Assembly: GCF_056746865.1 (NCBI RefSeq)
Contig: NZ_CM163382.1
Strand: one strand, 5' to 3'
DNA length: 64,000 nucleotides
The translations under genes and the position numbers were made by a program. Positions 1,582 to 34,156 of the stretch are shown in pieces. The stretch's first letter is position 1. Each line of letters begins with the position of its first letter. Under the pieces are notes generated by a model, which was not told the origin of the DNA, did not search any database, and worked only from the letters and a program-made list of their open reading frames with translations.

Positions 1582-1728
1582 GGAAGGTGCGAATAAGCAG
1601 GTCATTTCTTCCCAAGCTGACTCGCTGATTAAAATTTCGCGGATCTGGGCCGATTTTTTTCCCGCAAACACATCGAATCGGCCTGTTTAGGCTATTTTTT
1701 CCACCATTTCTGGCGTTATTTCCGGTTT

Positions 1729-4015
<2,287 letters not shown>

Positions 4016-4184
4016 TCAGGAACTTGTTCGCACCTTCCCTAAAAAAAGCAGATGATTTTCATTATTATCGCAGGATAATTGTGCGCATATTTTCCATGCG
4101 GATAAGAATACTTATTCATGGAAATAATAATTTCCAGGTCATCAAGTGAAATCTGTTAACGCAAAGAGTGTTCCACCCTGCCCC

Positions 4185-4682
4185 TCACACCATCTCAAGT
4201 TTTACCGCGTCATAACCACACTGAACCAAACATTCACCGCAACCATTACATATTGCAGCATCGATTACAGGCATTCCGCTTTCGTTGATTGAGCATGCCT
4301 GAAGTGGGCATAGATCGACACACTGTTTGCAACTGCGCACCGGATTAACACAATTTGCTTTAAAAACGGGACGCAATCCGGTGTCGAAACGAGCCTGCGG
4401 ACGTAATGCCTCAGTGGAACATGCAGCTATACATAAGCCGCAGCCGTCACAACTGGCAAATTCAATCACCAATTGCGGATAGCCATCTTCATGCCGGTTG
4501 AGAATGCCCATGGGACAGGCATTAATACACAAATCACACTGCGTGCACTGCACACGAAACTGCGCATCAGGTAACGCGCCGGGAGGTAAGGAGTGCACAG
4601 GTAATATCGGTGTTGTTACCGGGCGTGCCGCGCTGACAAAGGCCCGAAATAGCCCACGTCGGCTAACATACCGATGAGACAT
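4185..4682 (-). CDS. 4Fe-4S ferredoxin-type protein (NapF/YdhY-like, four Cys clusters); start uncertain (alternative ATG at 4715)
   Basis: Four CxxCxxCxxxCP motifs; N-terminal SRRGLFRAF; last gene of the DMSO-reductase-type operon. Confidence 0.6.
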   Translation of the reverse strand: MSHRYVSRRGLFRAFVSAARPVTTPILPVHSLPPGALPDAQFRVQCTQCDLCINACPMGILNRHEDGYPQLVIEFASCDGCGLCIAACSTEALRPQARFDTGLRPVFKANCVNPVRSCKQCVDLCPLQACSINESGMPVIDAAICNGCGECLVQCGYDAVKLEMV

Positions 4683-4711
4683 TAACTCCTGATAATAATT
4701 TTCTGACTTAC

Positions 4712-5308
4712 TCATCCAAGAAAGAGCCGTTTGGTTGGAGGATTTAGTGCCTGTTGCTGCTGATAATCCTGCAGAAACAGTGTCGCAATCTGCGCCAACT
4801 TCGCGTAAAACGCACTGACAGGGTTGCGCTGTAATAACTCCAGATAACGATATCCCCACGGCAGCAAATGCGTTTCCAGCAATTGATTCGCTGCGCGTTC
4901 TTTCCCCTCTGCCAGCAAGGCGCTACAGGCAAGCAGCATCAGGCCAAACTGATCTTCCGGTTCATTTATACAGGAATCAAACGTCATTCCCTGATCACGA
5001 AGGAACTTCCGGTACTCGGCAGTGCTGTCCCCCATCAACAGATTATCTTTTTCGAGATATACCGAACCCCAGGGTGGTGCTGGCATTTCACCCTGTCCTT
5101 CAAAAAGAACAGAAAATTGCCAGAGATGCTGCTCCTCATCCGGGATTGACCAGTCAGAGCATAATTCAGCCACCTGGCGGGGATCGCGCCAGGGGTATAT
5201 CTCATCCAATGTCGGCAGACAGTCAAACAGTGCCCGAACTTCAGGACGCGTGGGAGAATAGTAAAACAGGGCACCAAGAATACGCACCAGTACGGCTGGG
5301 GAAGGCAT
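4712..5308 (-). CDS. DmsD/TorD-family Tat-proofreading chaperone
   Basis: VRILGALFYY...PWGSVYL...EPEDQFGLMLL similar to E. coli DmsD; SD AGGAG upstream of the ATG at 5308. Confidence 0.65.
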   Translation of the reverse strand: MPSPAVLVRILGALFYYSPTRPEVRALFDCLPTLDEIYPWRDPRQVAELCSDWSIPDEEQHLWQFSVLFEGQGEMPAPPWGSVYLEKDNLLMGDSTAEYRKFLRDQGMTFDSCINEPEDQFGLMLLACSALLAEGKERAANQLLETHLLPWGYRYLELLQRNPVSAFYAKLAQIATLFLQDYQQQQALNPPTKRLFLG

Positions 5309-5362
5309 GATTAAACACTCCTGAAAGCAGAGGTGGCCGGGCAAACACCGGCCACTCACAGG

Positions 5363-6139
5363 TTACATAGGGATGGTCCAGAGGTTGTAGAAACCGATCC
5401 GACCAACCAGTTCAGCAGCAATAACCACCAGTGCAGTCATCGCCAGCACAGCTTGCCCACTTTTCATGCGTGCATAGAGCAGTGCCCCAATAACACCCAG
5501 CGCCAACAGAATGGCCTGAGCGGTAAACCAGGTGGACTGCGCAGCGGTAATAACGCCATCAGCACTCATTAGCGTGGAAATATAACCCGGACGCAAACAG
5601 AAACTCGCCAGAATCGCCAGTACACTTACCAGCAGCCCCAGACGACGAACGCCAAACAACGCCGCCAACATGCCGCCACCGATAAGTGCAGTTAGCACCA
5701 TCATCATGGTGGTGTAAGAGGTACTCCAGGTCGCTACCGTTGCCAACTGGTAAATACGCGGGATGGCAAAGATAAACACGACTCCAATCGCAGCGGCCAG
5801 CCATACCAGTACTTTACAAAGCATTGCACCACCGCGATTTAACAGCAAACCGAGAGATCCCAGTCCTCCGGCTGCGGCAAAACATGCCGAAAGCACGATT
5901 TCGTTACTCATAGGAGAACTGCCGACACGGAATAGCATATTCAGCGCTCGCAGCGGCTGCCCGACATGAATGGTGCCAAGCACAACACCCACACCAAACA
6001 AGCACATCACCGAAAAGAGACCAATCGCCATACGACGTGGCTCAATTAATCCCATGGCACCGCCAATCAGCAGCAGAATAAACGCCCCCACTGCGCTCTG
6101 GGTAAATACGGTGAAAAAGACCAGTGGTAACTCATGCAT
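5363..6139 (-). CDS. DMSO reductase-type membrane anchor subunit (DmsC/YnfH-like)
   Basis: Polytopic hydrophobic 258-aa protein immediately downstream of the Fe-S subunit; SD GGGAGG. Confidence 0.7.
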   Translation of the reverse strand: MHELPLVFFTVFTQSAVGAFILLLIGGAMGLIEPRRMAIGLFSVMCLFGVGVVLGTIHVGQPLRALNMLFRVGSSPMSNEIVLSACFAAAGGLGSLGLLLNRGGAMLCKVLVWLAAAIGVVFIFAIPRIYQLATVATWSTSYTTMMMVLTALIGGGMLAALFGVRRLGLLVSVLAILASFCLRPGYISTLMSADGVITAAQSTWFTAQAILLALGVIGALLYARMKSGQAVLAMTALVVIAAELVGRIGFYNLWTIPM

Positions 6140-6758
6140 GGCGCACCTCCCGAATGTTCATGATCGCCCCTTCTTTGTCGCCCGTAGGTCGCGCCAGCGG
6201 ATGCGGTTTAATTATCAGGTTAGGATGCGTAAACGAAGCGGCAGGTAACGGTGCGATTTCATTTTCACTGCCATATTTCGCCCGCAATTCGTCGATAGGA
6301 CCAAAATCCAAAGCTCGCTGTGGACAGGACTCAACACAAATAGGCGGGAGATTTTTCTCCAGTCGGTCAAGGCAACCATCACACTTACGCATCACTTTAG
6401 CTTGTGTATCAAACTGCGGTGCACCATAAGGGCAGCGCATTTCGCAGTAACGACAGCCCACACAAACACTGTCATCCACCAGCACCAGGCCATCTTCTTC
6501 GCGTTTGTGCATCGCGCCGGTTGGGCAACCTGCCACACAGGTCGGTTCATCGCAGTGATTGCAGGCAATCGACAAATAGTAAGTGAAGGTATTGTTGTGC
6601 CAGCTTTCACCTTCTTTCACCCAGCTACCGCCACCATATTCATACACGCGGCGCAGCTTCGGTCCGACATCCAAATCTTTATTATCCTTGCAGCTTACCT
6701 GGCAGGTTTTGCAGCCAGAGCAACGCGAGGAGTCAACGTAAAAACCATACTGTTTCAT
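6132..6758 (-). CDS. DMSO reductase-type iron-sulfur subunit (DmsB/YnfG-like)
   Basis: MKQYGFYVDSSRCSGCKTCQVSCKDNKDL... with four ferredoxin Cys motifs. Confidence 0.8.
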   Translation of the reverse strand: MKQYGFYVDSSRCSGCKTCQVSCKDNKDLDVGPKLRRVYEYGGGSWVKEGESWHNNTFTYYLSIACNHCDEPTCVAGCPTGAMHKREEDGLVLVDDSVCVGCRYCEMRCPYGAPQFDTQAKVMRKCDGCLDRLEKNLPPICVESCPQRALDFGPIDELRAKYGSENEIAPLPAASFTHPNLIIKPHPLARPTGDKEGAIMNIREVRHA

Positions 6759-6771
6759 TGCGGATCACTCC

Positions 6772-9207
6772 CTAAGCGCGTTTGATTTCAACCAGGTTGG
6801 TATGTTGCGGGTTCCCTTTCGCCAGCGGCGACGGCAGGTGGCTGGTCAATGTGTTAATACATCCACCCACGTCCACACCGTTGCTGTCCAGTCGGGTCCA
6901 CGCGCCTTGCGGCATTGCCACCACGCCCGGCAGGATGCGCTGTGTCACCTTGCAGGGGATCTCCACCACACCGCGATCGTTGAATACATGGACCATATCG
7001 CCTGATTTCAACTGACGCACGCTGGCGTCTATCGGGTTGATCCAGACTTCATCCGGTACCGCTTCATGCAGCATCAGCACACTGGCATATGTTGAGTGCG
7101 TGTGACCTTTGGTGTGAAAACCGCTCATCTGTAGCGGATACTTTGCTGTCAGACTCTTGTTCAGATGGGACTCTGTCACTATACAAAATTCAGGAACAGC
7201 CGGAATGCGATCTCCTTCCGGTAGTGTCCAGGCTTTAGCCAGTTCCGCCAGAGTGTGCGAGTAAATCTCAATCTTCCCGGAAGGTGTCGTCAGTGGACTG
7301 GCAACCGGATCATGGCGGAAATCAGCAAGGATAATACTGTCCTCATCACGAGTACCTTGCTGATCGATAACCCCCATATTCATTGCAACTTCCCATTCAG
7401 GCAGATATGATCGCTTCTCTTTAACTTGTCCGTAATGCTTCGCCATCCACTCTGCCTGAGTACGCCCCTCAGTAAAACGCTCTCTTACCCCAAGATGCCC
7501 CGCAATATCTGCACAGATATCATAGGTACTGCGTACTTCCCACATCGGTGTGATCGTTTTTTGCATTGCAATCATGTAATGGTGAGAACCGGCTGCATAG
7601 GAACTGTCCACCAGATCCTCGGCTTCTAAGTAGCTAGTTTCTGGAAGAAGGATATCGGCAAAGCGGGCACTGGCAGTCATATGATTATCAATAACCACGA
7701 TAGTTTCGCACAGGCTGTCATCTTCAAGTATTTTGCGTGTACGATTGATATTTCCATGTTGATTCAGAAGTGCATTCCCGGCCTGGTTGAAGAACAGTTT
7801 AATACCGGTTTTCAGTTTATCCGCGCCTTTAACCCCCATAGTGGTGGCTGTCATTTTTTCCGGACTTTGAATCGCATCTGTCCACAGATAGCAGGGGATT
7901 GACACCTTAACGGGATTTTCACCAATCGGCAGAGCAGGAACACCATAAGGTGTTCCGTATGTCCAGTTCCCATTGTTGGTTCCTGGCAATCCAAAATGAC
8001 CCGTCAGGGCAGGAAGTATCTGAACCGCTCTGGAAGTCTGTTCACCATTTGCATGACGCTGTGGCCCCCATCCCTGGGCAATGAAACAGGCCCGAGCTTC
8101 GGCCATTTCACGTGCCAACTGGCGAATACGAATAGCCGGGATGCCACAGATATCTGCCGCCCATTCAGGTGTTTTTTCGACGCCGTCATCACCGTTACCC
8201 AGAACATAGTCTTTATAACTGGCATTTGGTTTCGCCGTTTCCGGAAGGGTGCTACGATCATAACCGACACAATAAGTATTGACTCGTTCTTCGTCGATCA
8301 GATTTTCTTTTATCAACGTGTGTGCAATAGCTGCTACCAGTGCAGCATCGGTTGTAGGGCGAATTGGTAACCATTCAGCATGTTCTGTAACAACAGAGTC
8401 TGTATAGCGCGGATCGATGATAATCACCCGGGCGCCTGATATTTCCAGCGCACGGCGCAGTTCTTCAACTTGCCCACCACCGGACATCCGAGTCTCAGAT
8501 AAATTCAGACCAAAAAAAACCACAAGATCAGAATGCGCAATCTGGCTAAAATGACTGGCAAACTGTACTCCTGTAGCACCATACGTGTAAGATGTGGCGG
8601 TAAAGTTTTGAGCGTTTGAGTAATTATTGTAATACTGCAGAAAACCGCCATTCAGGTTCAATAACCTTTTCCATGCGGGTGTTCCTTGGTTATGATAATA
8701 CGCGCCAGATTGATAATTAAAATAGATTGCTTCATTTCCATATTTTTCAGAAACGCGCTTTAATTCAGCGGCAATAAAGGCTGTGGCCTCATCCCATGAA
8801 ATACGTTTAAATTTCCCTTCTCCGCGTTTACCAACACGTTTCATCGGATATTTAATCCGGTCAGGGCTATAAACACGCCAGCGGCTGGAACGACCACGTA
8901 GGCAAGGTCGAATCTGATGTTCACCAAAAACAGAGTCGTCCTTCGCGTCCTCGGCTTCAATACGAACAATGCGTCCGTCTTTTACGATAACTTTTAATGG
9001 ACAACGACTTCCGCAATTCACCAGGCAAGCACTATGCCTGACGGTTTCAGCATTTTCGTTGGTTTTACCGGTATCCGATGTTTCGGCCCTGACGGTTGTG
9101 GAAAAAGGCAAAGTGATGGCGTTGCTTAGTGCAACGGCAGCTCCCAATTTTGCAGTTGTAGTCACCGCATCACGTCGGGAGATTGTTGTATTTAACAACT
9201 CTTTCAT
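6772..9207 (-). CDS. Molybdopterin oxidoreductase catalytic subunit, DMSO reductase family (DmsA/YnfE-like), with Tat signal
   Basis: N-terminal SRRDAV twin-arginine motif; CLVNCGSRCPL Fe-S motif; TRMSGGG and GWGPQRHANGE segments as in DmsA. Confidence 0.8.
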   Translation of the reverse strand: MKELLNTTISRRDAVTTTAKLGAAVALSNAITLPFSTTVRAETSDTGKTNENAETVRHSACLVNCGSRCPLKVIVKDGRIVRIEAEDAKDDSVFGEHQIRPCLRGRSSRWRVYSPDRIKYPMKRVGKRGEGKFKRISWDEATAFIAAELKRVSEKYGNEAIYFNYQSGAYYHNQGTPAWKRLLNLNGGFLQYYNNYSNAQNFTATSYTYGATGVQFASHFSQIAHSDLVVFFGLNLSETRMSGGGQVEELRRALEISGARVIIIDPRYTDSVVTEHAEWLPIRPTTDAALVAAIAHTLIKENLIDEERVNTYCVGYDRSTLPETAKPNASYKDYVLGNGDDGVEKTPEWAADICGIPAIRIRQLAREMAEARACFIAQGWGPQRHANGEQTSRAVQILPALTGHFGLPGTNNGNWTYGTPYGVPALPIGENPVKVSIPCYLWTDAIQSPEKMTATTMGVKGADKLKTGIKLFFNQAGNALLNQHGNINRTRKILEDDSLCETIVVIDNHMTASARFADILLPETSYLEAEDLVDSSYAAGSHHYMIAMQKTITPMWEVRSTYDICADIAGHLGVRERFTEGRTQAEWMAKHYGQVKEKRSYLPEWEVAMNMGVIDQQGTRDEDSIILADFRHDPVASPLTTPSGKIEIYSHTLAELAKAWTLPEGDRIPAVPEFCIVTESHLNKSLTAKYPLQMSGFHTKGHTHSTYASVLMLHEAVPDEVWINPIDASVRQLKSGDMVHVFNDRGVVEIPCKVTQRILPGVVAMPQGAWTRLDSNGVDVGGCINTLTSHLPSPLAKGNPQHTNLVEIKRA

Positions 9208-9287
9208 TTTATTTTCTCACATTGTTTTCATAATTATTATTAATACGACATATGAGGTAATCATAAAGAATTAGTAATTCATCATGA

Positions 9288-9301
9288 TTGATTATGATCA
9301 A
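9288..9301. promoter_or_regulatory. Consensus FNR box (TTGAT-tatg-ATCAA) about 87 bp upstream of the dmsA-like start
   Basis: Perfect TTGATnnnnATCAA palindrome; a TATGAT -10-like hexamer lies ~32 bp downstream on the coding strand; a second near-consensus site GTGATcattATCAA at 9337-9350. Confidence 0.5.
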
Positions 9302-9560
9302 GTGAGATTTGGTGCTTAGCACAAATATAAATATTTGTGATCATTATCAAAATGTAAATGATAACGCATCTTTATTATCATTTGAGATTAAATATCACGC
9401 AGCGTTAATCTAAGGAAGGTGCGAATAAGCAGGTCATTTCTTCCCAAGTTGACTCGCTGATTAAAATTTCGCGGAGCTGGGCCGATTTTTTTCCCGCAAA
9501 CACATCGAATCAGCCTGTTTAGGCTATTTTTTCCACCATTTCTGGCGTTATTTCCGGTTT

Positions 9561-11847
<2,287 letters not shown>

Positions 11848-11870
11848 TCAGGAACTTGTTCGCACCTTCC

Positions 11871-12465
11871 CAAGAGAACGCAACAGCGCACTTGCTTTGC
11901 CACAGTTGAATTTTGTGCCGTAACGATGTGCAAGCATGTAAGCATAAGGAGTCAAGGTATAGCGTGTTACTTAGTTACTCGGATTAACAATCCCAACGTA
12001 CAGAGCGGCGGATTTAGAGAGTCAGCGCAGTCCCTGCTCCGGCAGTCAGTGGCAGGCGGCGTACTGAAGCAAACCATTATCGATACCGGCATCGGCGATA
12101 CCATCGGCATGCTGATGTCACACGGCAATATTTCTCCCTACATCATGGCGTGGTTGATAACCGTGCTGATCCGTCTGGCAACGGGTCAGGGCGTGGTCTC
12201 AGCCATGACGGCGGCGGGGATTATTAGCGCAGCAATCCTCGACCCGGCAACCGGTCAACTGGTGGGCGTCGACCCGGCGTTGCTGGTGCTGGCAACAGCG
12301 GCTGGCTCCAACACGCTGACCCATATCAACGATGCTTCGTTCTGGCTGTTCAAAGGCTACTTTGATCTGTCGGTGAAGGATACGCTGAAAACCTGGGGTC
12401 TGCTGGAGCTGGTAAACTCCGTGGTTGGCCTGATAATCGTGTTGATCATCAGCATGATTGCATAA
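11871..12465 (+). pseudogene. GntP-family permease, 3' fragment truncated by IS5 copy B
   Basis: C-terminal transmembrane sequence ...[34 protein letters not shown]...[27 protein letters not shown]...; the track ORF 11554-12465 reads through from the IS5 end. Confidence 0.6.
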
Positions 12466-12514
12466 CGTTGATACCGCTCTGGCGCACAGCGCCAGAGCGG
12501 TTTTCCATCCTGCC

Positions 12515-13210
12515 TCAACAATCCTCAATAATCAGATATACCGCCTTCACCGGACCATGCACCCCAACCACCTTGATAAGCTCAATATCCGCCGTCGAGC
12601 TGGGTCCACTGATGATATTAATGCACGATGGCATACGCTCACCGGCCTGTGCTTTCTGATGCAGTTTTTCTGCCAGCTGCGCCACGCGCGGCAGGATGGT
12701 GCTTTTACGCAGCACGAAAATAGAGGACTCCGGCAACAGGCTCAGGGAGCGCCCGCGCTCCGGTGCGGAAAACAGCACCACGCCGCCGGACTCGGTCAGG
12801 CCATATTCGGCATACACCACGCCGACTTTCGCCTGCTCGGCCTGGGTAATATTTTCGCTACCACGCGCCGGATCCCAGACCACGGCGTTGCATTCCTGCT
12901 GCAAGCGTTCGGTGATGCCCAGCTCCACCAGCCGGCTGTCGCCGCTCAGCACCACCGGCTGCTGACCCAATTCTTCGCACAGGCGCAGTGCCGCGTCTGC
13001 GGCCTGGTCCTCGCTGGTCAGTTCGCAGCGGGCCAGCATCACTTCGCTGGCAAACTGGATAAACGCAGAGCAGCGCTGCTCGGGGCTAAGCTCGGTCAGG
13101 CGCTCGTTGGCATAGTTGTTAACCGGTGCGGCATCCGCTTGCGGTTCGAAGCGCAGCGGGCGACCCAGCGCCTGGGCGATGGTGTTTAAAAACGCGGTAC
13201 GGTTATCCAT
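12515..13210 (-). CDS. lutC: Lactate utilization protein C (LutC/YkgG family)
   Basis: MDNRTAFLNTIAQALGRPLRFEPQ... matches remembered E. coli YkgG; SD AGGAG; start overlaps lutB stop. Confidence 0.8.
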   Translation of the reverse strand: MDNRTAFLNTIAQALGRPLRFEPQADAAPVNNYANERLTELSPEQRCSAFIQFASEVMLARCELTSEDQAADAALRLCEELGQQPVVLSGDSRLVELGITERLQQECNAVVWDPARGSENITQAEQAKVGVVYAEYGLTESGGVVLFSAPERGRSLSLLPESSIFVLRKSTILPRVAQLAEKLHQKAQAGERMPSCINIISGPSSTADIELIKVVGVHGPVKAVYLIIEDC

Positions 13211-14630
13211 TCTTTTTCTCCTGCGCCTGATGTTTCTTAAACCAGCTGCGGAAGCTCTCGCCGTCAGCATCAGGCAGATCGCGCGCCTCCATCCAGTCAC
13301 CAATCGCGCCAACCTTGAGCGGGGTTTTGCCGCCATTGATAAACCAGCTCGCCGCATGCGCGCCCGCCATCATCCCGACTTTCCACAGCCCCGGATGGCT
13401 ATTGGCATAGGCGAACATCTTGATCGCCCGTCGCTCGGCTTTCGGCGTAATGCCCTCCTCGGCCATCACCCGGCGATGACGCAGGATCAGTTTTGACAAC
13501 GGAATACGCACCGGGCAGACGCTGTCACAAGCCGTGCACAAAGAACAGGCGTACGGCAGGTCTTTAAAATCTTTATAGCCGCCGAGCAGCGGAGAAATCA
13601 CCGCGCCGATAGGGCCGGGATAGATAGAGCCATAGCCGTGCCCGCCGATGTGGCGGTACGCCGGACAGGTGTTCATACAGGCTCCGCAGCGGATGCAGCG
13701 CAGCACATCGCGAAACTCTGAGCCCAGCACCTGCGAGCGACCGTTATCGACAATCACCAGATGGAACTCTTCCGGTCCGTCAACGTTGTCCGCATCACGC
13801 GGGCCGGTCAGCCAGGTGTTGTAGCCCGTCAGACGTGCGCCCACGGCGCTGCGCGCCAGCATGGTAATCAGCACATCCACCTCGGCAAAGGTCGGCGCGA
13901 TACGCTCCATGCCCATCACCGCAATGTGCGTTTTCGGTAGCGTGGTGCACATGCGCGCGTTGCCTTCGTTGGTCACCAGACACACCGAGCCGGTTTCCGC
14001 CACGGCAAAGTTACAGCCAGTAATACCGATTTCGGCACTGAGGAAATCCTCGCGGATCTTCTGACGAATGAACAAGGTCATAGCTTCCGGGGTTTCCGGG
14101 CCGTCGTACCCCAGACGTTCGTTCAGCACGCGGCGGATCTGGTAGCGATCTTTATGAATCGCCGGAACCACGACGTGCGAAGGCGGATCCTGATCCAACT
14201 GCAGGATATATTCCCCGAGATCGGTTTCGATCACCTGGATTCCGGCATCCTGCAACACATGGTTGACGCCGATTTCTTCGGTCACCATCGACTTGGACTT
14301 CACCACCTTCTGCGCATTTTTACTCTGCGCGACCTGCAAAATGTAGCGAGTGGCATCTTCTTTGGTTTTGGCGAAATAGACGTGTCCGCCGTTTTCCGTC
14401 ACTTTCTCGGAGAGTTGGTACAGGTAAGCGTCGAGGTTGCTCAGAACGTGATCGCGGATCTGGCTGGCACGATCGCGCCATTCTTCCCAGTGGCCTAACT
14501 CATCGACCATTTTTTGCCGATTCGCGCCGATACGCTCCTGCGCATTAGCCACGGCTTTGCGCATAATCGGATCTTCTATCTGCTGACGAATACGCAGTTT
14601 AAATTCTACATCGCTGGTTTTTATCGACAT
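13203..14630 (-). CDS. lutB: Lactate utilization iron-sulfur protein B (LutB/YkgF family)
   Basis: MSIKTSDVEFKLRIRQQIEDPIMRKAVANAQERIGANRQ... and CxxCxxC motifs. Confidence 0.85.
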   Translation of the reverse strand: MSIKTSDVEFKLRIRQQIEDPIMRKAVANAQERIGANRQKMVDELGHWEEWRDRASQIRDHVLSNLDAYLYQLSEKVTENGGHVYFAKTKEDATRYILQVAQSKNAQKVVKSKSMVTEEIGVNHVLQDAGIQVIETDLGEYILQLDQDPPSHVVVPAIHKDRYQIRRVLNERLGYDGPETPEAMTLFIRQKIREDFLSAEIGITGCNFAVAETGSVCLVTNEGNARMCTTLPKTHIAVMGMERIAPTFAEVDVLITMLARSAVGARLTGYNTWLTGPRDADNVDGPEEFHLVIVDNGRSQVLGSEFRDVLRCIRCGACMNTCPAYRHIGGHGYGSIYPGPIGAVISPLLGGYKDFKDLPYACSLCTACDSVCPVRIPLSKLILRHRRVMAEEGITPKAERRAIKMFAYANSHPGLWKVGMMAGAHAASWFINGGKTPLKVGAIGDWMEARDLPDADGESFRSWFKKHQAQEKKNG

Positions 14631-14640
14631 CTCTTTCCCC

Positions 14641-15360
14641 TCAGCGGCTCATCAGCACTTCAGCAATATGCATCACTTTGACCGGCTGGCCTTCCCGTTG
14701 CAGTCGACCGCCAATGTTCAGCAGGCAGCTAACGTCTGCGCCAATCAAAAATTCCGGCTTTGCGTCCATCAGATGTAATACTTTCTCTTTCACCATCTCA
14801 CCGGATATCTCGGCCATCTTGACCGAGAACGTCCCGCCAAAGCCGCAACAGGTATCCTGATCGGCAAACGTCAACAGCTCCAGTCCGCGCACGTTTTTCA
14901 GCAGCGTAAGCGGCTCTTCCTTCACTCCCAGTTTGCGGGTCAGGCTACAGGAAGGATGATACACAGCGCGGCCCTGCAGGCTGGCACCAACGTCCACCAC
15001 ACCCAGTTTGTTGACGATAAAGGAGGTGAGATCCTGCATACGCGCGGAAACTTTCTCAGCACGCAGCGCCCATTCCGGTTCATCGGCCAGATACGTCGGG
15101 TAGCTTTTAACCGCGTAGGTGCAGGAGCCCGCCGGGGAGATAATCGGATCGTCGTTGTCTTCCAGCGCGGCGATCAGGTTTTTCATCCCGGGGATCGCCT
15201 CTTTGATGTAACCGCTGTTGATGGCTGGCTGACCGCAACACCCTTGCTTCTCGGGGAAATTAACGCGACAACCCAGTTTTTCCAGCAGCAATACGGAGTC
15301 TCGTGCCATCCGTGATTTCAGTGCGTCACCAATACAGGTGACAAAGAAATTTACATTCAC
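14641..15360 (-). CDS. lutA: Lactate utilization protein A (LutA/YkgE family, Cys-rich)
   Basis: MNVNFFVTCIGDALKSRMARDSV... with CCG motifs. Confidence 0.85.
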   Translation of the reverse strand: MNVNFFVTCIGDALKSRMARDSVLLLEKLGCRVNFPEKQGCCGQPAINSGYIKEAIPGMKNLIAALEDNDDPIISPAGSCTYAVKSYPTYLADEPEWALRAEKVSARMQDLTSFIVNKLGVVDVGASLQGRAVYHPSCSLTRKLGVKEEPLTLLKNVRGLELLTFADQDTCCGFGGTFSVKMAEISGEMVKEKVLHLMDAKPEFLIGADVSCLLNIGGRLQREGQPVKVMHIAEVLMSR

Positions 15361-15434
15361 AATAACTACTCCATTGCTTCATTTCTGTTTATTGCGCTTG
15401 ATATCGCGATATCAAACAAATGTTCATTCGTATT

Positions 15435-17132
15435 TCATGCCCAGTTTTTATGTTTGCTGGTTTTACCAATACCTGGATTCATAGTGTTGGTCGGATCATT
15501 TTCCTGATAAAAACGTGCCAAATTTTCCGGCGCTTTATACAGATGGCCGACATTGTGTTCCGCCGGATATTGCGCTCCGCGTTGGCGCAGTAATTCCAGC
15601 ATCTGTTCTTTTAACGCGTGGGCATCTACGCCTTTTTTAACGATATAATCCTGATGGAATACATGGCACATAAAATGGCCGTAATAGAGTTTATGCACCA
15701 ACTGACTGTCAATTTCCGCAGGTAAATACTCATACCATTCGGTATCATTGCGGCGTAATGCAATATCCAGCGCGAGAATATCCTCAACCTCGTCAGAATG
15801 AACGGCCTGATAACGAATGGCAGCACCCGCGGCGGCAAAACGATGCAGAAACGCCTTACTGCCCTCTTCCGCGGTACAGGTAAAGAACGCGCCCTCGGCC
15901 GATTTAAAATAGTCCGTTAACCATGCCTGGGCTTCGGCCACACCCTCGCCGGACATTTTCAACATCAGATGGTGTTCATAGTTATCGCGCCAGGTCTTCA
16001 TCCGCGCCGGGAGATGGCTCGGGAACAGATGGCTAAAAGCCTGCATCGCGCGGTCAGTAAAGTGCGGGCGAAAGATCTTCACCTTCTCAAGTATGGCCTC
16101 GGTACGCCCCTTCAGGTTGAAGAAGAACGGCATTTTGTCCGTGCCAAGTTTGTCGATCATCAGGAAGGTATCTTTGCTGTATTTCTCTGCAATATCATAG
16201 ATATCGCGGTGCATATACTCCCCAGCAACCGGCAGGTTTGTAAAATTCGCCAGGATGTGGCGGCGAATCTCAGTCAGGACATCAGTCTGATTGGTACCGA
16301 TATAAAAGACCTGCTGGTTCTTCTCGGCTTCAAAGGTATCCAGACGTACGGCAAACACCGCTAACTTGCCCGCGCAGCCAGAGGATTCAAACAGGCGATC
16401 CGGGTCAGCGTTGTAACGTGCTGGCGTGTCGGCATTGATGTCCCGCACGCGGCTAACATAGTCGTGATCGTGCGCGTGACGTCCGTCATGGTTGACGAGC
16501 GCGGCTTCAATCACATTGTTATCCAGCCGGGCAAGGATTTGCTCTGGCGTCTGACCTAGCTCAATGCCAAGGTGATTGACCAGCTGCAAGCGTCCCTGTT
16601 CATCAATGCGGGCAAACAGCGACATCTCGGTGTAAGCCGGGCCTCGCTGGACCAGAGAACCGCCCGAGTTATTACAGATACCGCCGATAACCGACGCGCC
16701 GATGCACGAAGAGCCGATCACCGAATGCGGCTCACGGCCAAACGGCTTCAGCGCCCTTTCCAGCGAGTACAGCGTGGTGCCCGGATAAGCCAGCACCTGC
16801 TTGCCCTCATCCAGCACATGCAGACTGTCCAGCCGCAGCGTGCTGATAATGACGATCTCGCGGTCGTAGTCATTACCATTTGGCGTCGAACCCTCGGCCA
16901 GGCCTGTGTTCGACGCCTGCATCAGGATTATTTTATCAGCCTCAACGCAGGCGCTGAGGACTTTCCAGAGTTCAAGCAAAGAGCCGGGGATAACCACCGC
17001 CAGAGCATCACCCTGACCCGAGCGGAATCCCTTACGGTAACGCGCAGTTTTTGACGGTTCGGTGAGGATATGAGCAGGGCCAACCAATTGGGTAAGAGTC
17101 GTCAAAAAGGTCTTATTATCAGTATGTTTCAT
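15435..17132 (-). CDS. dld: FAD-dependent D-lactate dehydrogenase (Dld paralog)
   Basis: High similarity along the whole length to remembered E. coli Dld (ARYRKGFRSGQGDALAVV...NPGIGKTSK). Confidence 0.8.
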   Translation of the reverse strand: MKHTDNKTFLTTLTQLVGPAHILTEPSKTARYRKGFRSGQGDALAVVIPGSLLELWKVLSACVEADKIILMQASNTGLAEGSTPNGNDYDREIVIISTLRLDSLHVLDEGKQVLAYPGTTLYSLERALKPFGREPHSVIGSSCIGASVIGGICNNSGGSLVQRGPAYTEMSLFARIDEQGRLQLVNHLGIELGQTPEQILARLDNNVIEAALVNHDGRHAHDHDYVSRVRDINADTPARYNADPDRLFESSGCAGKLAVFAVRLDTFEAEKNQQVFYIGTNQTDVLTEIRRHILANFTNLPVAGEYMHRDIYDIAEKYSKDTFLMIDKLGTDKMPFFFNLKGRTEAILEKVKIFRPHFTDRAMQAFSHLFPSHLPARMKTWRDNYEHHLMLKMSGEGVAEAQAWLTDYFKSAEGAFFTCTAEEGSKAFLHRFAAAGAAIRYQAVHSDEVEDILALDIALRRNDTEWYEYLPAEIDSQLVHKLYYGHFMCHVFHQDYIVKKGVDAHALKEQMLELLRQRGAQYPAEHNVGHLYKAPENLARFYQENDPTNTMNPGIGKTSKHKNWA

Positions 17133-17563
17133 GGAGGGCGGCTCTCCGCTCCTTATATCAGGGCCAGTGAAAATGGCTATAAGTTCATTTGTATGACAAA
17201 GCAGAATATTCCCTCAATCAATATCCACATGCAATACCCCATTTTATTTCTTTCGGTACCGCTCACATTTTTTAATGAAATTACCACCGCCATATAATTC
17301 ATACCTCGCCCTTTGAGGGGATGCCAAAACACTTATTTATTGCAAAGATCATCCCATACCTATTAATGATTAACTCTAATGGGTGTTGTAATATTTAGTG
17401 GTTATTCATATTTAATAAAAAAAATAACATTATTTATACAATTATTAACCTTTATAACTTTATTTCACTGAAGCGATTCAGTTAGCATTTTTTATTTTAT
17501 TATTCAGGTAGCTTCCTTCCCCATAAATATAGCTCAGTCTAAAAAAGTAAATCGGGAATTGTA

Positions 17564-19117
17564 ATGCACGAATATTTAATGTTTGCTCTGGCACTCTCTC
17601 CTTTGCTGCTGATGGTATTTTTAATACTGAAATTAAAAATGCCCATCCATTATTCCGTACTGATCTCTTTGGTATTCACCGCTGCACTATCGGCAATATT
17701 CTGGGAAATGCCCGTACAAAATTTGAAAGCCGCGATAGGCTATGGTGCACTGAAGGGACTATGGCCGATCGTAATTGTTATCCTCGGCGCTATCTTCAGT
17801 TATAACGTCATGCAGGCGACCAAAGCGCTGGATATTCTGCGCGATATTCTCGCCAGCATTAGCGAAGATAAGCGTATTCAGGTGCTGCTGATTTCATGGT
17901 GTTTTGGTGGATTTCTTGAAGCCGCTGCGGGCTATGGCACGGCGGTCGCTATTCCGATCGGTATTCTCATTGCGCTGGGATTCAACCCGTTGAAGGCGGC
18001 GATTGCTTCCCTCGTAGCAAATACCGTTCCGACCGCATTTGGCGCGGTTGGGATCCCGGTTTCTATTCTGGCAGAGCAGGTTAATCTGCCGGTTTATACC
18101 TTAGGCGGAACCATTATTTTGCAGCTCGCGCTGTTTAATATCCTGCTGCCGTTTGTGATTGTCTGCATTATTGGCGGTGGCCTGAAAGCCATTCGCGGCG
18201 TATTTCTGATCACGTTGATTTGCGGCATTTCCACGCTGATTCCGCAATATTTTGTCGCCATCCATCTTGGCGCGGAATTACCCGCTTTTGCCGGTAGCCT
18301 GGTCAGCCTGTTTGCCGTGGCGATGGTCAGTCGCCTGCGCAAAGGGAAAACCGATCCAGAGTGGCGCATTGAGGTCAGCCATACCCGCGAAACCACGCCG
18401 CGCTCGGCAAAAGTGTTGTTCCGCGTGGGCTCTATCTATCTGTTTATTTTTGTGTTTATCCTGCTGTGTTCGCCGCTGTTTCCGACAATAAAAGGCGCGG
18501 CATCCCAACTGGCTTCGGTGCTGCATTTCACGTTGGCTGACGGCAAAACGATGGCACTGAAAGTTGAATGGGTGACCACACCAGGGATGCTGATTATCTT
18601 TGCGACCATTATCGGCGGTTTTATTCAGGGAGCGTCCGCACGCGGGATGCTGGAAGTATTTATCAAAACGATTTTCCAGCTTAAAAACTCTATCGTGGCA
18701 ATTATGGCGATCGTCGCGCTGGCCACGGTGATGGATCTCAGCGGGATTATCTCCACACTGGCGCAGTCGATTGTCGATCTGACCGGCAGCTCGTACGTCT
18801 TCCTCGCCCCGGTGATTGGCGCGCTGGGCACGTTCGTTACCGGCAGCGATACCAACTCGAACATTCTGTTTGGCAAGCTGCAAACCATAGCTGCCAGCAA
18901 GTTACATATCGATCCCAACTGGCTGGCGGCGGCCAATACCTCTGGCGCTACGGGGGGCAAAATGATTTCGCCGCAAAGCATCGCCATCGCGGTTTCTGCC
19001 ACCAAAATGGACGGTCAGGCCAATCAGATCATGTCTGGCACCATGAAATACTGCTGTGCCTACATTGTGATCCTTGGCCTGAAAGTCGGTCTCTTTTATT
19101 ACTGGTTTATGGCGTAA
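17564..19117 (+). CDS. Lactate permease (LctP/LldP/GlcA family)
   Basis: 517-aa polytopic protein; conserved GSDTNSNILFGKLQ and GKMISPQSIAIA segments of LctP-family transporters. Confidence 0.8.
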   Translation: MHEYLMFALALSPLLLMVFLILKLKMPIHYSVLISLVFTAALSAIFWEMPVQNLKAAIGYGALKGLWPIVIVILGAIFSYNVMQATKALDILRDILASISEDKRIQVLLISWCFGGFLEAAAGYGTAVAIPIGILIALGFNPLKAAIASLVANTVPTAFGAVGIPVSILAEQVNLPVYTLGGTIILQLALFNILLPFVIVCIIGGGLKAIRGVFLITLICGISTLIPQYFVAIHLGAELPAFAGSLVSLFAVAMVSRLRKGKTDPEWRIEVSHTRETTPRSAKVLFRVGSIYLFIFVFILLCSPLFPTIKGAASQLASVLHFTLADGKTMALKVEWVTTPGMLIIFATIIGGFIQGASARGMLEVFIKTIFQLKNSIVAIMAIVALATVMDLSGIISTLAQSIVDLTGSSYVFLAPVIGALGTFVTGSDTNSNILFGKLQTIAASKLHIDPNWLAAANTSGATGGKMISPQSIAIAVSATKMDGQANQIMSGTMKYCCAYIVILGLKVGLFYYWFMA

Positions 19118-19364
19118 GCCATTGTCAACCCCGTCAAATTCGCGGCAATCGTATTTGACGACACAGTGACCAAAAAGGTTTATACCACCCCAGAAACGGA
19201 ACAAGGCGACAGGCTTTACGATTTGTCGGCGCTGACTAAAATAGCGCCGATGTTTCAAATCGAGGATTGTTGTTATGTTGTTCTGGAAAAAGATGGTGAA
19301 GAAGTTCGACGCCTTTTCCGCGTTGATTCCACCACGCTACTTCCGCGTGTAATACCTGGCACTT

Positions 19365-19470
19365 ATTCCTGATGGCGCTTCGCTTATCAGGCCTACATTT
19401 CACACTCATTTGTAGGCCTGCGTTTCACGCTCATTTATAGGCCGGATAAGGCGCGAGCCGCATCCGGCAG
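19365..19470. repeat. REP/BIME-type repetitive extragenic palindromes
   Basis: GCCGGATAAGGCG...CGCATCCGGCAG and CTGATGGCGCTTCGCTTATCAGGCCTACA units. Confidence 0.7.
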
Positions 19471-19538
19471 CAACAGCAGCGTAAAATGCTCACCCCTTTC
19501 TCTTACGCAGACCGCATGCTCTTAACACCACCACCCAC

Positions 19539-20053
<515 letters not shown>

Positions 20054-20075
20054 CTATTTCCCTGCCTCTCCTCCC

Positions 20076-20109
20076 CGAACCGGACGTGCACCTTTCAGCG
20101 CATCCGGCT
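20076..20109 (-). ncRNA. Group II intron domain V (catalytic hairpin)
   Basis: 34-nt GAGCCGG...GAAA...CCGGTTC hairpin matching the domain V consensus, just 3' of the reverse transcriptase stop. Confidence 0.75.
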
Positions 20110-20115
20110 CTCCAT

Positions 20116-21639
20116 TTAAATGCTGGCGAACGCCATTGCCACTTCTGTAAAGCGCGATGTATACGTGTTTCTGGTCTCCGTCCTCAGATAGGGATTACCT
20201 TCGGGTAGCCGCCAGCGGAACAGCTTCTTGCCTTGCCCCACCAACCGGTACAGTATTTCGCCGCTGAGCTTGCCGTGATTGGTTTTACCAAATAAAACCC
20301 ACGTTTTGCTCTGACCCGGTTTCGGTGATTTACACCACCACCTCATCAGGGAAGCGATACCTGTACGGTATTTGCGGGCCAGCCAGTGAGCCAGCTTCCA
20401 GAACACGACACGGTCGATATAACTGAAGACTTTGGCCTTAAAATCAACGAACTGATAGAACATGGCCCAGCCTTTCAGTTTTCGGTTGAGTTGTTCAGCC
20501 ATATCGACTTTGCTTTCACTGTAGTTGCCTGATAACAGTGCTGTCAGCGATGCGGCGAAGTTTCTGGCTTTCTCCTGCGGGATCGTTGAGACCACTCGCA
20601 TCTCGCCATAACGACTGCGTTTGCGAATGATCCTGTGCCCCAGAAAGATAAAGCCGTCATTAACATGGGTGATTTTAGTCTTATCCATGTTCAGCCTGAG
20701 TTTCAGACTGCCTTCGAGCACACCCCGACACTCCTCCCTGATGGCTTCCGCCTGTGCTTTGGTGCCTTTGACGATGAGGACAAAATCATCGGCATAGCGG
20801 CAGTACGCCACCGCGGGTTTCCACTGCCAGTTTTCTCTGACCGCCGTACTTCGGCCCCGTTGGATACTGTTATTCCAGTACCACCGATCTTTTCTGGCTT
20901 TCCCGCTCAGGTAGCGCTCATGCAGGTATTGATCGAACTCATTCAGCATGATGTTCGATAATAGCGGCGATATAACACCGCCCTGTGGCACACCTTCACT
21001 GGCCGCCCGAAAGAGACCGACATCGATATGTCCCGCCTTGATGGTTTTCCACAGCAGAGTCATGAAACGTGCGTCACTGATCCTGCGGCGTACAGCCTTC
21101 ATCAGCAGTCGATGATGTACGGTGTCGAAGTAACTGGACAGGTCGCCTTCAATCACCCAGCGTCCCCGGGTTTCACCACAGTCTGTGAGCTGTAATTTCA
21201 CCGTGCGGATCGCGTGGTGGACACTGCTCTCAGGCCGGAAGCCATATGAGAGCGTATGAAAATCACTCTCCCATATCGGCTCCATCGCCATCAGCATGGC
21301 CCGCTGAACAATACGATCCCGCAACGCGGGGATACCCAGTGGTCGCAGTTTGCCGTTGCTTTTAGGGATGTAAACCCGTCTGGCGGGCAAGGGCTGGTAG
21401 TGGCCTGAGAGTAATTCATCCCTGAGGATTTGCAGCTCAACAGCCAGTCTGGCCTGTAGCATTGTTTTGTTCACGCCATCAACGCCGGGGGTATGGGCCC
21501 CCTTTGATGAAAGCGTGATCCGCGCCGCTTCAGCCAGCCATTCTGGTTGTGTTATCAGACGCAGCAGCCGTTGAATCCGTAGGGACGGATCGGTGGCTGC
21601 CCATGTGGCAAGCTTGCGTTGCATTTCGCTGATTATCAA
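20116..21639 (-). CDS. Group II intron-encoded protein (reverse transcriptase with maturase domain); TTG start
   Basis: RT motifs including the YADD box (AVAYCRYADDFVLIV) and GKLRPLGIPALRDRIVQ; located in intron domain IV. Confidence 0.85.
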   Translation of the reverse strand: MIISEMQRKLATWAATDPSLRIQRLLRLITQPEWLAEAARITLSSKGAHTPGVDGVNKTMLQARLAVELQILRDELLSGHYQPLPARRVYIPKSNGKLRPLGIPALRDRIVQRAMLMAMEPIWESDFHTLSYGFRPESSVHHAIRTVKLQLTDCGETRGRWVIEGDLSSYFDTVHHRLLMKAVRRRISDARFMTLLWKTIKAGHIDVGLFRAASEGVPQGGVISPLLSNIMLNEFDQYLHERYLSGKARKDRWYWNNSIQRGRSTAVRENWQWKPAVAYCRYADDFVLIVKGTKAQAEAIREECRGVLEGSLKLRLNMDKTKITHVNDGFIFLGHRIIRKRSRYGEMRVVSTIPQEKARNFAASLTALLSGNYSESKVDMAEQLNRKLKGWAMFYQFVDFKAKVFSYIDRVVFWKLAHWLARKYRTGIASLMRWWCKSPKPGQSKTWVLFGKTNHGKLSGEILYRLVGQGKKLFRWRLPEGNPYLRTETRNTYTSRFTEVAMAFASI

Positions 21640-22295
21640 AGGTCTTCACCTCGTTAGGTCAGTTAATTCACGTCGCAAACACATTCAAACTGCTTCCCTT
21701 CGCCATGTAATGGGCTTTCCCCATCGCGGACTACTACGGAAGCTCCGCCAGCCAGCGCGTCATCGGAGCCATGCCCCCTTAACATCCGTCGCTGACCTTC
21801 CCCGGTTTACCGGCCTGGACTCAGGCATACTGAGGAGGCTGCCCGTCGCACTCTTTATCCTTGCTTGCCGCAAGTTGGCAGAAGTCAGCAATGCAAGCGT
21901 GATAGACGCTGCTGCCCCGGTGTTTCGCATACATGTCAAAACACCTTCGACCGGCAGTGCTTACGTATCACTGCCAGTTCCTCCTGCACGGCCTGTCAGA
22001 TCACGTAGGCCGTGGTGACGTTTTCAACCCACAGAGGCGGATTAACGGGTTCATGTTCTTCAGCCTTTCAGTACTTAACCTTGAGGATCATCTCGGCTTA
22101 GTGATCTCGCCTCAATCCCCGTTGTCAGCGGGTTACATCACCCTGCGGGCATGCCGCAGGTCACTGCCGCTCAGGTTCTCCACCGTCACACCCGGTGGGA
22201 TTGTTGGGTTTCTCATCGTGAGTTACCGGTTCAATATTCCAGACAGACTCGCGGTTCATTTAAGCATCCATGCCCGCCCTGAACTCCGGGCACAC

Positions 22296-22713
22296 CGTAA
22301 GTAAAATCAGCCACCCACAACTGGTCAGGACGTTCTGCCACAAACTGACGGTTTACGCGGTCGCCTGCGGCAACGGCTTTCCGGCTGACGGTAGTGCGGA
22401 CCTTTTTACCCCGGAGAACACCGGCAAGTCCCATAACCGCCATGAGGCGCGCCACTGTACATCTGGCTACCCTGATTCCTTCCCGTAACAACTGACGCCA
22501 GACTTTACGCACACCGTATACCTGATGATTCCCATCGTATACGCGCAGTATCTCTTTCTTCAGCCAGTCATCGCGCTGCGCACGGGCACTGCGTTTATCA
22601 GGATGATGTCGCTGTTGCTGACAGTGGTAATACGTTGACGGGGCAATATGTAGTTCACTGCATACCGGTCCGACCCCGTACAGCTTACGCAGCTTATCCA
22701 GCAGTGGCATCAC
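22296..22713 (-). pseudogene. IS629-like transposase OrfB, N-terminal ~139 codons, interrupted by the intron after ...QLWVADFTY
   Basis: [33 protein letters not shown]...; the track ORF continues 22 codons into intron sequence. Confidence 0.75.
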
Positions 22714-23036
22714 TTTTTCCAGAGGCGGTCGAACTCCACCTTCGCAAAATAAGCGGAAGCCTGGCGAAGGATATCGTTACTGCGGCGCAGTTCACGATTT
22801 TCACGTTCCAGCTCTTTCAGACGCTGACGTTCAGCGGTGGTGAGCCCGCCATCACCGCCTCCGGTATCCCGCTCATGCTGGCGCACCCAGACACGCAGAG
22901 TCTCCGGTGTACAGCCAATCTTTGGGGCAATGGAACAAATTGCCGCCCACTGTGAGTCATATTCGCCCTGACTTTCCAGAACCATACGAATCGCCCTCTG
23001 ACGGACTTCGGGGGAAAAACGAGTATTTTTAGTCAT
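22710..23036 (-). CDS. IS629-like OrfA (HTH)
   Basis: [50 protein letters not shown]... matches remembered IS629/IS1203-type OrfA. Confidence 0.8.
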
Positions 23037-23090
23037 TCTGTTTACCTCTTTCTCAGGGAGTTTAGTCTCCAGGATTCCCGGGGCGGCTCA

Positions 23091-23883
23091 GGTCACCGAT
23101 GCCGTGATGGAGCAGGTTGTAGAATGGCAAAACAGACCACTGGATGCTGTTTACCCCATTGTTTATCTTGACTGTATCGTCCTGAAAGTTCGGCAGGACA
23201 GTCGCGTCATCAACAAATCGGTGTTCCTGGCACTGGGCATCAATATCGAAGGTCAGAAGGAACTGCTGGGTATGTGGCTGGCCGAAAATGAAGGGGCGAA
23301 GTTCTGGCTCAATGTGCTGACTGAACTGAAAAACCGCGGTCTGAACGATATCCTCATCGCCTGTGTGGATGGCCTGAAAGGCTTCCCGGATGCCATCAAC
23401 ACAGTATATCCGAAGGCCCGCATCCAGTTATGCATCGTGCATATGGTGCGCAACAGCCTGCGCTTCGTGTCATGGAAGGACTACAAGGCCGTCACTCGCG
23501 ACCTGAAAGCGATTTATCAAGCTCCCACGGAAGAGGCAGGTCAGCAGGCACTGGAAGCGTTCGCTGCGGCCTGGGACAGTCGCTATCCTCAGATAAGCCG
23601 AAGCTGGCAGGCTAACTGGCCGAATCTTGCCACGTTCTTCGCTTATCCAACGGACATCCGCAAAGTGATCTATACGACGAATGCCATCGAGTCGCTAAAC
23701 AGCGTGATCCGCCATGCGATCAAAAAGCGTAAAGTGTTCCCGACAGACGACTCGGTGAAAAAAGTGGTGTGGCTGGCAATCCAGTCTGCGTCCCAGAAAT
23801 GGACGATGCCGTTGAAGGACTGGCGAATGGCAATGAGCCGCTTTATTATCGAGTTCGGTGACCGCCTGGACGGTCACTTCTGA
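23091..23883 (+). pseudogene. IS256-family (mutator-type) transposase, C-terminal ~264 codons; 5' part removed at the IS629-like insertion
   Basis: Coding ...VTDAVMEQVVEWQNRPLDAVYPIVYLDCIVLKVRQDSRV... begins immediately at the IS629-like end with no start codon or N-terminal domain. Confidence 0.7.
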
Positions 23884-24119: not shown

Positions 24120-25667
<1,548 letters not shown>

Positions 25668-33822: not shown

Positions 33823-34156
33823 ATTTTCTCCTGCGGATAACTGAACAGCCCTGTCCCTGATGCGGGTGATCCGGGCAACAAACCTGACAGAGACGCCTGC
33901 ATAAGTGGTCGCGCTGTACCAGTATGAGCCTCCATCATCCTGATTTGTGTATTAACTTTCAATACCGGAGGACGATTTGATTACCGGTTGTTAGCAGGAG
34001 TGCGAATATTAGACCGACGGTGGAGATCTAAGACTCAGTGAGCATAGCGATACACTATATTACTGTAATTAAGCCAGTAAACTTCCTGTTCACTGGCTTA
34101 AACGCTAATGATGTATGCAGTTGAACAAGCTTTTAAACTAATGATTAATTGATATA

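Follow-up and report, generated by a model that had tools for sequence, protein, structure and literature searches.

The window analysed here is a stretch of 64,000 nucleotides from contig NZ_CM163382.1 of the NCBI RefSeq assembly GCF_056746865.1, and all coordinates given below are positions in this window. Positions 12052–19541 carry a 7.49 kb lactate block composed of a 3' fragment of gntP, the genes lutC-lutB-lutA-dld on the minus strand, a divergently transcribed permease gene of the LctP family, and repetitive extragenic palindromic (REP) elements. None of the five lactate genes is truncated. The block belongs to an island that carries an integrase and adjoins nfeF (yqjH); a dimethyl sulfoxide (DMSO)-reductase-like cluster lies on one side of the block and a raffinose cluster on the other. 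We estimate at about 0.88 the probability that this segment is a piece of a Citrobacter freundii-complex chromosome, captured as an extra lactate utilisation set with the functions predicted below. The module itself is already known: RefSeq annotates all its genes, and it was described on plasmid pFec10 (PMC7984374) and in an island of the sequence type 127 (ST127) lineage (PMC9769692). The present analysis adds the exact extent of the captured segment, its assignment to a Citrobacter freundii-complex chromosome and a corrected account of the gntP end, together with the observation that insertion sequence (IS) elements at both edges still reshape or delete the module.

Genes were called from the listing of open reading frames (ORFs) and from profile searches. 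The permease gene lctP (17564–19117, plus strand) encodes a protein that scored above the cutoff of the lactate permease family TIGR00795 across its full length (406 bits, cutoff 341.15) and matched PF02652 over positions 3–519 of 522. The same protein fell well below the equivalog cutoffs for LldP (260.5 versus 918 bits) and GlcA (254.3 versus 1121 bits). On the opposite strand, dld (15435–17132) reached 1040.6 bits with NF008387 (cutoff 391) over profile positions 4–567 of 570, and its full-length product contains FAD_binding_4 and the complete Dld-specific membrane-binding domain PF09330 (1–290 of 290). The three following genes, also on the minus strand, are lutA (ykgE-like, 14641–15360) with two CCG cysteine-rich domains, lutB (ykgF-like, 13203–14630) with LUD, 4Fe-4S dicluster and LutB_C domains (TIGR00273, 759 bits, cutoff 445), and lutC (ykgG-like, 12515–13210) with a LUD domain. 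They are adjacent in the order A-B-C, show the expected domains and have the lengths of the K-12 proteins. The divergent layout of a lactate permease and a dld-lutABC-like gene set, which the initial annotation had read from the letters, was thus recovered in full. The gntP fragment (12052–12465, plus strand) holds the last 138 of 447 codons; it matched only profile positions 310–446 of 447 with 274.8 bits, below the cutoff of 647 for an intact GntP, and is marked as a pseudogene at the equivalent position in RefSeq relatives. Between the convergent gntP fragment and lutC, a GC-rich hairpin with T-runs, read directly from the sequence at 12474–12505, probably acts as a bidirectional terminator.

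The origin of the segment was apparent in protein and DNA comparisons. A scan with LctP, covering one genome per species, returned Citrobacter species whose proteins, encoded on large chromosomal contigs, were 93–99% identical in amino acids. At the 90% level, the protein clusters to which LctP and Dld belong were dominated by Citrobacter species on multi-Mb contigs, and the Dld cluster held proteins of C. portucalensis and C. cronae 99% identical to the Dld of the module. The 4.9-Mb chromosome of C. portucalensis (CP145154.1) shows the order uxuR-uxuB-uxuA-gntP-lutCBA-dld, the divergent lctP and then a pdxK-like gene. Positions 12052–19541 aligned to it in one colinear block of 7,496 bp with 97.4% identity and three gaps, and the homology stopped exactly at 12052 and 19541. 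The Citrobacter freundii-complex locus is colinear with the module across the 7.49 kb, at 98–100% amino acid identity and with the small ORF and REP units of the right end included; it differs from the window by an intact gntP followed by uxuAB-uxuR, and by the absence of IS elements. Over the five genes and the gntP fragment, 172 nucleotide differences with CP145154.1 corresponded to only 15 amino acid differences and no internal stop. Purifying selection was therefore acting while the sequences diverged, and the gntP pseudogene has undergone hardly any decay. The gntP fragment alone differed from C. portucalensis by 16 nucleotides and by no amino acid.

The presence of dld varies among the Citrobacter chromosomes. 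The species representatives taken from the LctP scan possess an intact gntP (447 aa) and lutCBA divergent from lctP, and dld is missing. Several of them share an identical deletion of dld (equivalent to 15435–17137), with the last ~70 bp fused to the region upstream of dld, and C. gillenii keeps dld at 85% nucleotide identity. In other strains of this complex the gene is intact. The donor is a member of the C. freundii complex, in which the presence of dld is polymorphic. Operons combining lctP and lutABC exist in Kosakonia, Edwardsiella, Pectobacterium, Proteus and others and, together with LutABC/LldEFG of Bacillus and Shewanella, they link the permease to three-subunit L-lactate oxidation. 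Those lctP-lutABC operons are co-directional and devoid of dld, whereas the divergent layout with an inserted dld is specific to Citrobacter.

The initial annotation had considered the module to be an acquired second set, arranged otherwise than in K-12, and had asked for an identity comparison with the K-12 genes. This comparison was performed and upheld the proposal. The K-12 genes dld, ykgEFG and lldPRD occupy three separate loci. Dld of the module is 86% identical to K-12 Dld in amino acids (77% in nucleotides), and LutA, LutB and LutC are 95, 95 and 86% identical to YkgE, YkgF and YkgG, respectively (80–84% in nucleotides). LctP is only 32.5% identical to LldP. The K-12 loci belong to the same enzyme families (Dld, LutABC/YkgEFG) with the same predicted chemistry; the module differs by the absence of LldR and LldD, and by a permease of another LctP subfamily. 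With dld and ykgEFG at 77–84% nucleotide identity and a permease as distant as this one, the genes of the module are xenologues and not relocated Escherichia coli genes.

Carriers were surveyed in 5,426 complete E. coli genomes by a sensitive DNA search, using lutCBA and part of dld as a query. The module was present in approximately 105 of them (~2%), from many sources. The count of matching places was taken as a proxy for the canonical loci. General genomes, without the module, showed a median of two places, which we read as the canonical ykgEFG and dld loci, and consequently three places are taken to represent the module together with the two canonical loci. Of the 60 carriers with the best matches, 39 showed three places, one showed four and the remaining 20 showed two. 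In these two-place carriers the symbols ykgE and ykgF were given to the genes of the module by the Prokaryotic Genome Annotation Pipeline (PGAP), and the place counts suggest that these carriers may possess no lutABC set besides that of the module. They lend some support to the idea that a rearrangement assembled the native dld, ykgEFG and permease genes of the strain at this place, as its only copies. Such a rearrangement is nevertheless extremely improbable, given 77–84% nucleotide identity to the K-12 genes as opposed to 97.4% to Citrobacter, a permease which is not LldP and whose scores fall far short of the equivalog cutoffs for LldP and GlcA, and the three or four places found in every genome with a 100%-identical module.

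At the left, the module is bounded by a copy of ISKpn26 of the IS5 family (9414–11870, minus strand, the second of two copies in the window), which is split by the 1258 bp IS3-family element ISEc31 (10348–11605, minus strand) with a 3-bp ATG duplication. K-12 IS3 was considered for this inner element and gave no match. Position 11871 is the first base past the ISKpn26 inverted repeat. It opens a spacer of 181 bp (11871–12051), located between ISKpn26 and the gntP breakpoint, which is not of Citrobacter origin and of which only the last 66 bp, and not the first 114 bp, resemble (~90% identity) an inovirus Gp2-family gene found in islands of other E. coli. Within E. coli the spacer always accompanied ISKpn26 and the module (93 matching genomes, 86 of them over at least 80% of the length). 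When searched in plasmids, it was found in only one module-bearing E. coli record, besides a weak match in a K. aerogenes island; that record is a non-mobilisable "plasmid" of 13 kb whose flanking genes appear chromosomal. A 303-codon ORF (11554–12465, plus strand) starts within the end of ISEc31/ISKpn26, crosses the spacer and continues in the reading frame of the gntP fragment. Transcription coming out of the IS might in theory lead to synthesis of the last 138 residues of GntP, but the arrangement is probably due to chance.

These observations modify the earlier account of the left edge, according to which gntP had lost its 5' part to IS5 and the module had been larger before this deletion. 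The truncation is real, and the module was indeed larger in the sense that gntP is intact in the donor and a longer segment was captured, but the attribution of the cut itself to IS5 is not supported. A deletion adjacent to ISKpn26 as the cause of the gntP truncation is in our opinion quite improbable. The element is not flanked by a target-site duplication, with CTAA at the left and CAAG at the right of this copy; its outer flank varies with the context (TTAG or CTCC) and the inner flank is always CAAG followed by the 181 bp. The absence of a duplication (TTAG or CTAA at the left, CAAG at the right) shows that the junctions have been remodelled, and CAAG is neither an IS5 target nor a duplication. 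Remodelling of this kind was visible in the sister strain E. coli W2-5, which lacks positions 11871–34027: the same ISKpn26::ISEc31 end is joined there to the CTAA at 34028, 22 kb away, and the strain has lost the raffinose cluster along with the lactate module and the remnants of IS and intron. The W2-5 junction is typical of an IS5-type adjacent deletion and shows that IS-mediated remodelling does take place at the left edge. The gntP breakpoint, however, is 181 bp away from the IS end, and the intervening DNA is neither IS nor Citrobacter. Moreover, in Klebsiella and IncY plasmids gntP is cut at 12084, 32 bp further in, and joined to DNA adjacent to higBA, and no IS5 was found near the breakpoint in the plasmid copies examined.

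The right end of the captured segment contains a block (19204–19352, plus strand) whose conservation greatly exceeds that of the neighbouring DNA in all Citrobacter loci. It includes a 25-codon ORF (19275–19352, MLFWKKMVKKFDAFSALIPPRYFRV) which is unannotated in the RefSeq records examined, together with a promoter-like site (TTTACG-16-TAAAAT), a hairpin and a Shine-Dalgarno sequence (GAGGA). The 25-aa product is identical in nine of the 12 Citrobacter loci examined, among them two with flanks of only ~80–85% nucleotide identity, and the substitutions are for the most part synonymous. No NCBIfam match was obtained for the ORF and no Rfam match for the block. In islands of the G3/10 type, IS1 replaces the right end from ~19320 on and cuts the ORF after codon 15. 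Next come palindromic units at ~19365–19475. The enterobacterial REP consensus (...CTTATCAGGCCTAC / GTAGGCCGGATAAGGCG...GCATCCGGC) consists of imperfect palindromes in alternating orientation, and direct reading of the sequence against this consensus identified units of the REP or bacterial interspersed mosaic element (BIME) type. The presence of REP elements at the right edge, as initially annotated, is therefore correct. They occupy the same place in Citrobacter chromosomes and were inherited from there. Rfam returned only a weak match to the REP-derived naRNA4 in this region (E = 0.76), and a search of positions 11800–23200 gave nothing else within the module.

The Citrobacter homology ends at 19541, and the end of ISEc52, an IS3-family element, begins at 19542; the same junction exists in Klebsiella IncF plasmids. 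Only a 484 bp remnant of ISEc52 is left in the window (19542–20025, minus strand). It forms the right boundary of the Citrobacter DNA and adjoins the 3' end of a group II intron (20026–21639, minus strand; Rfam Intron_gpII, domain V/VI at 20026–20112, ltrA at 20116–21639). The remainder of ISEc52 was sought beyond the intron and was not found. An IS3-family fragment at ~22300–23040, examined as a candidate, proved to be a different element; it contains an ALIL frameshifting pseudoknot at 22639–22755 and is followed by an IS1414 fragment. With ISKpn26 (IS5 family) at the left, the ISEc52 remnant (IS3 family) at the right and no matching duplications, the module does not have the structure of a composite transposon.

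Outside E. coli chromosomes, approximately 130 plasmid records carried at least 80% of the query, those listed being mostly IncFIB/IncFII plasmids of K. pneumoniae. In p69-1 (NZ_CP025457.1), a K. pneumoniae IncF plasmid examined in detail, the module is located between the ars and pco/sil clusters and shows 98.2% identity over 7.5 kb with the same ISEc52 junction. The K. pneumoniae plasmids differ from the window by an intact ISEc52 in place of the 484-bp remnant, by their gntP breakpoint, and by a lut half which represents another allele, ~3% divergent. The same genes in the same order, with 98% nucleotide identity, are carried by the P1-derived IncY plasmid pFec10 of E. coli Fec10 (PMC7984374) and related IncY plasmids such as pF16EC0456-1. 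For pFec10, identities to K-12 of more than 85% for Dld and 94% for YkgE were reported, in agreement with the figures obtained here, and no chromosomal counterpart of LctP (PMC7984374). The pFec10-type copy has the 12084 breakpoint next to higBA where the window has the spacer and ISKpn26, and the window copy is chromosomal. The same cluster is present in an island of the ST127 uropathogenic lineage (PMC9769692).

The module occurs in mosaic alleles. Those of C21 and of the plasmids are ~3% different from the window in the lut half and almost identical to it in the dld-lctP half, and the G3/10 allele has the reverse pattern, which points to recombination among variants of the module. The right junction at 19541/19542 with ISEc52 and the nearly identical dld-lctP half, both common to island and plasmid, would be expected if the island copy descended from a K. 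pneumoniae IncF plasmid copy. We regard this plasmid-to-chromosome transfer as unlikely: the lut half is ~3% different, and the island retains 32 bp more of gntP (12052 versus 12084), so that at the left end it cannot derive from the plasmid form. The data agree better with an ancestor of both forms in which gntP was longer, and with later recombination. We propose that a segment of a donor locus with the native order uxuR-uxuBA-gntP-lutCBA-dld, divergent lctP, small ORF and REP was captured beside ISEc52 and lost the 5' two-thirds of gntP. The piece now circulates in genomic islands of E. coli, where ISKpn26 marks its left edge, and on plasmids of Klebsiella and E. coli.

The genes dld and lctP are separated by an AT-rich divergent control region (17133–17563, 37% GC). 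An invariant TTCATTTGTATGACAAA box, also given as TTTGTATGACAAA, was found upstream of dld at ~17186–17202. We take its GT-N3-AC core to be typical of GntR/FadR-type operators and assign it this putative role on our own reading. The dld-lutABC genes probably form a single operon, whose transcription would start in the AT-rich region that also precedes the divergent lctP, because the gap of 74 bp between dld and lutA has no terminator-like site, and because the dld deletion in Citrobacter places lutABC directly behind the region upstream of dld. The promoter and terminator scan, which found no terminator-like site in this gap, returned fewer consensus sites than in shuffled sequence and says little on regulation. 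A perfect 18-bp palindrome (TTGATATCGCGATATCAA, 15372–15389) is located inside the gap; it is kept in C. portucalensis and C. braakii, is absent in C. gillenii and, having no T-run after it, is not an obvious terminator.

Family membership suggests that the module would provide for the uptake of lactate and for the oxidation of its D and L forms with transfer of electrons to quinone. LctP would import lactate, Dld, a peripheral-membrane flavin adenine dinucleotide enzyme, would convert D-lactate into pyruvate and pass the electrons to quinone, and the Fe-S enzyme LutABC would oxidise L-lactate to pyruvate and feed the respiratory chain. The L-lactate activity is predicted from the amino acid identity of 86–95% between LutABC and YkgEFG. 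The Dld enzyme of E. coli is specific for D-lactate, and its YkgEFG is a respiratory L-lactate dehydrogenase which supports L-lactate use with nitrate (PMC9701030). The host would gain a third type of lactate permease, and most carriers would have each of the two respiratory lactate dehydrogenases in duplicate; the acquired proteins would be independent of the lldPRD regulon. In the inflamed gut, lactate from the host contributes to the fitness of Enterobacteriaceae (PMC9701030). A mobile set made of a permease and the two respiratory dehydrogenases could thus help colonisation to a small degree. Its vehicles are metal-resistance plasmids in Klebsiella and metabolic islands in E. coli.

Several points weigh against the proposal of a captured, functional extra set. 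The window contains none of the canonical loci, and the existence of a second set in this very strain was judged from the closest complete genomes. The substrate range of LctP is a prediction for a protein with 32.5% identity to LldP. No regulator gene is present within the module, which makes its expression in E. coli uncertain. Finally, dld and ykgEFG mutants of E. coli MP1 had no gut fitness defect in mouse colitis (PMC9701030), and an extra set may therefore confer little. The module might even be a decaying, unexpressed passenger in E. coli, as its lack of a regulator and its redundancy with host genes would suggest; it is also flanked and repeatedly trimmed by IS elements, was lost in W2-5 and was cut by IS1 in the G3/10-type islands. 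This is rather unlikely, however, with all five ORFs full length in every copy examined and with the module retained in ~2% of the complete E. coli genomes and on ~130 plasmids. A more ambitious view would be that the mobile module preserves a dld-lutABC and divergent lctP set which is being lost in Citrobacter, where representatives of several species have the dld deletion scar in common, that it spreads in E. coli and Klebsiella because it would confer LldR-independent lactate respiration in lactate-rich niches such as the inflamed gut and urine, and that it includes an unrecognised fifth gene, the 25-codon ORF with a promoter-like site of its own. We consider this version speculative and rather doubtful.

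The two ISKpn26 copies (1582–4038 and 9414–11870) flank the DMSO/selenate-reductase-like cluster (4039–9413), not the lactate module. This cluster encodes the A, B and anchor subunits, DmsD and a 4Fe-4S protein. Further to the right, positions 24120–44419 hold a raffinose/sucrose-type cluster with a porin, a kinase, a GH32 hydrolase, a major facilitator superfamily transporter, an alpha-galactosidase and a LacI-type regulator, and a tyrosine integrase (42042–43358) next to nfeF (yqjH) closes the island. A scan of the window for tRNA genes found none. The flanks of the ISKpn26 copies read TTAG|IS|CTAA...CTAA|IS|CAAG, a structure also observed in C21 and W2-5, as would be expected if a circle made of one IS and the 5.4-kb cluster had entered an ISKpn26 already in place by recombination. 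Both copies are interrupted by ISEc31 (2516–3773 and 10348–11605) at one and the same site and with an identical ATG duplication, and the two ISKpn26::ISEc31 repeats share 99.6% identity across 2,464 bp. Neither ISKpn26 is interrupted in C21 and only the second one is in W2-5, a pattern which suggests gene conversion between the two copies.

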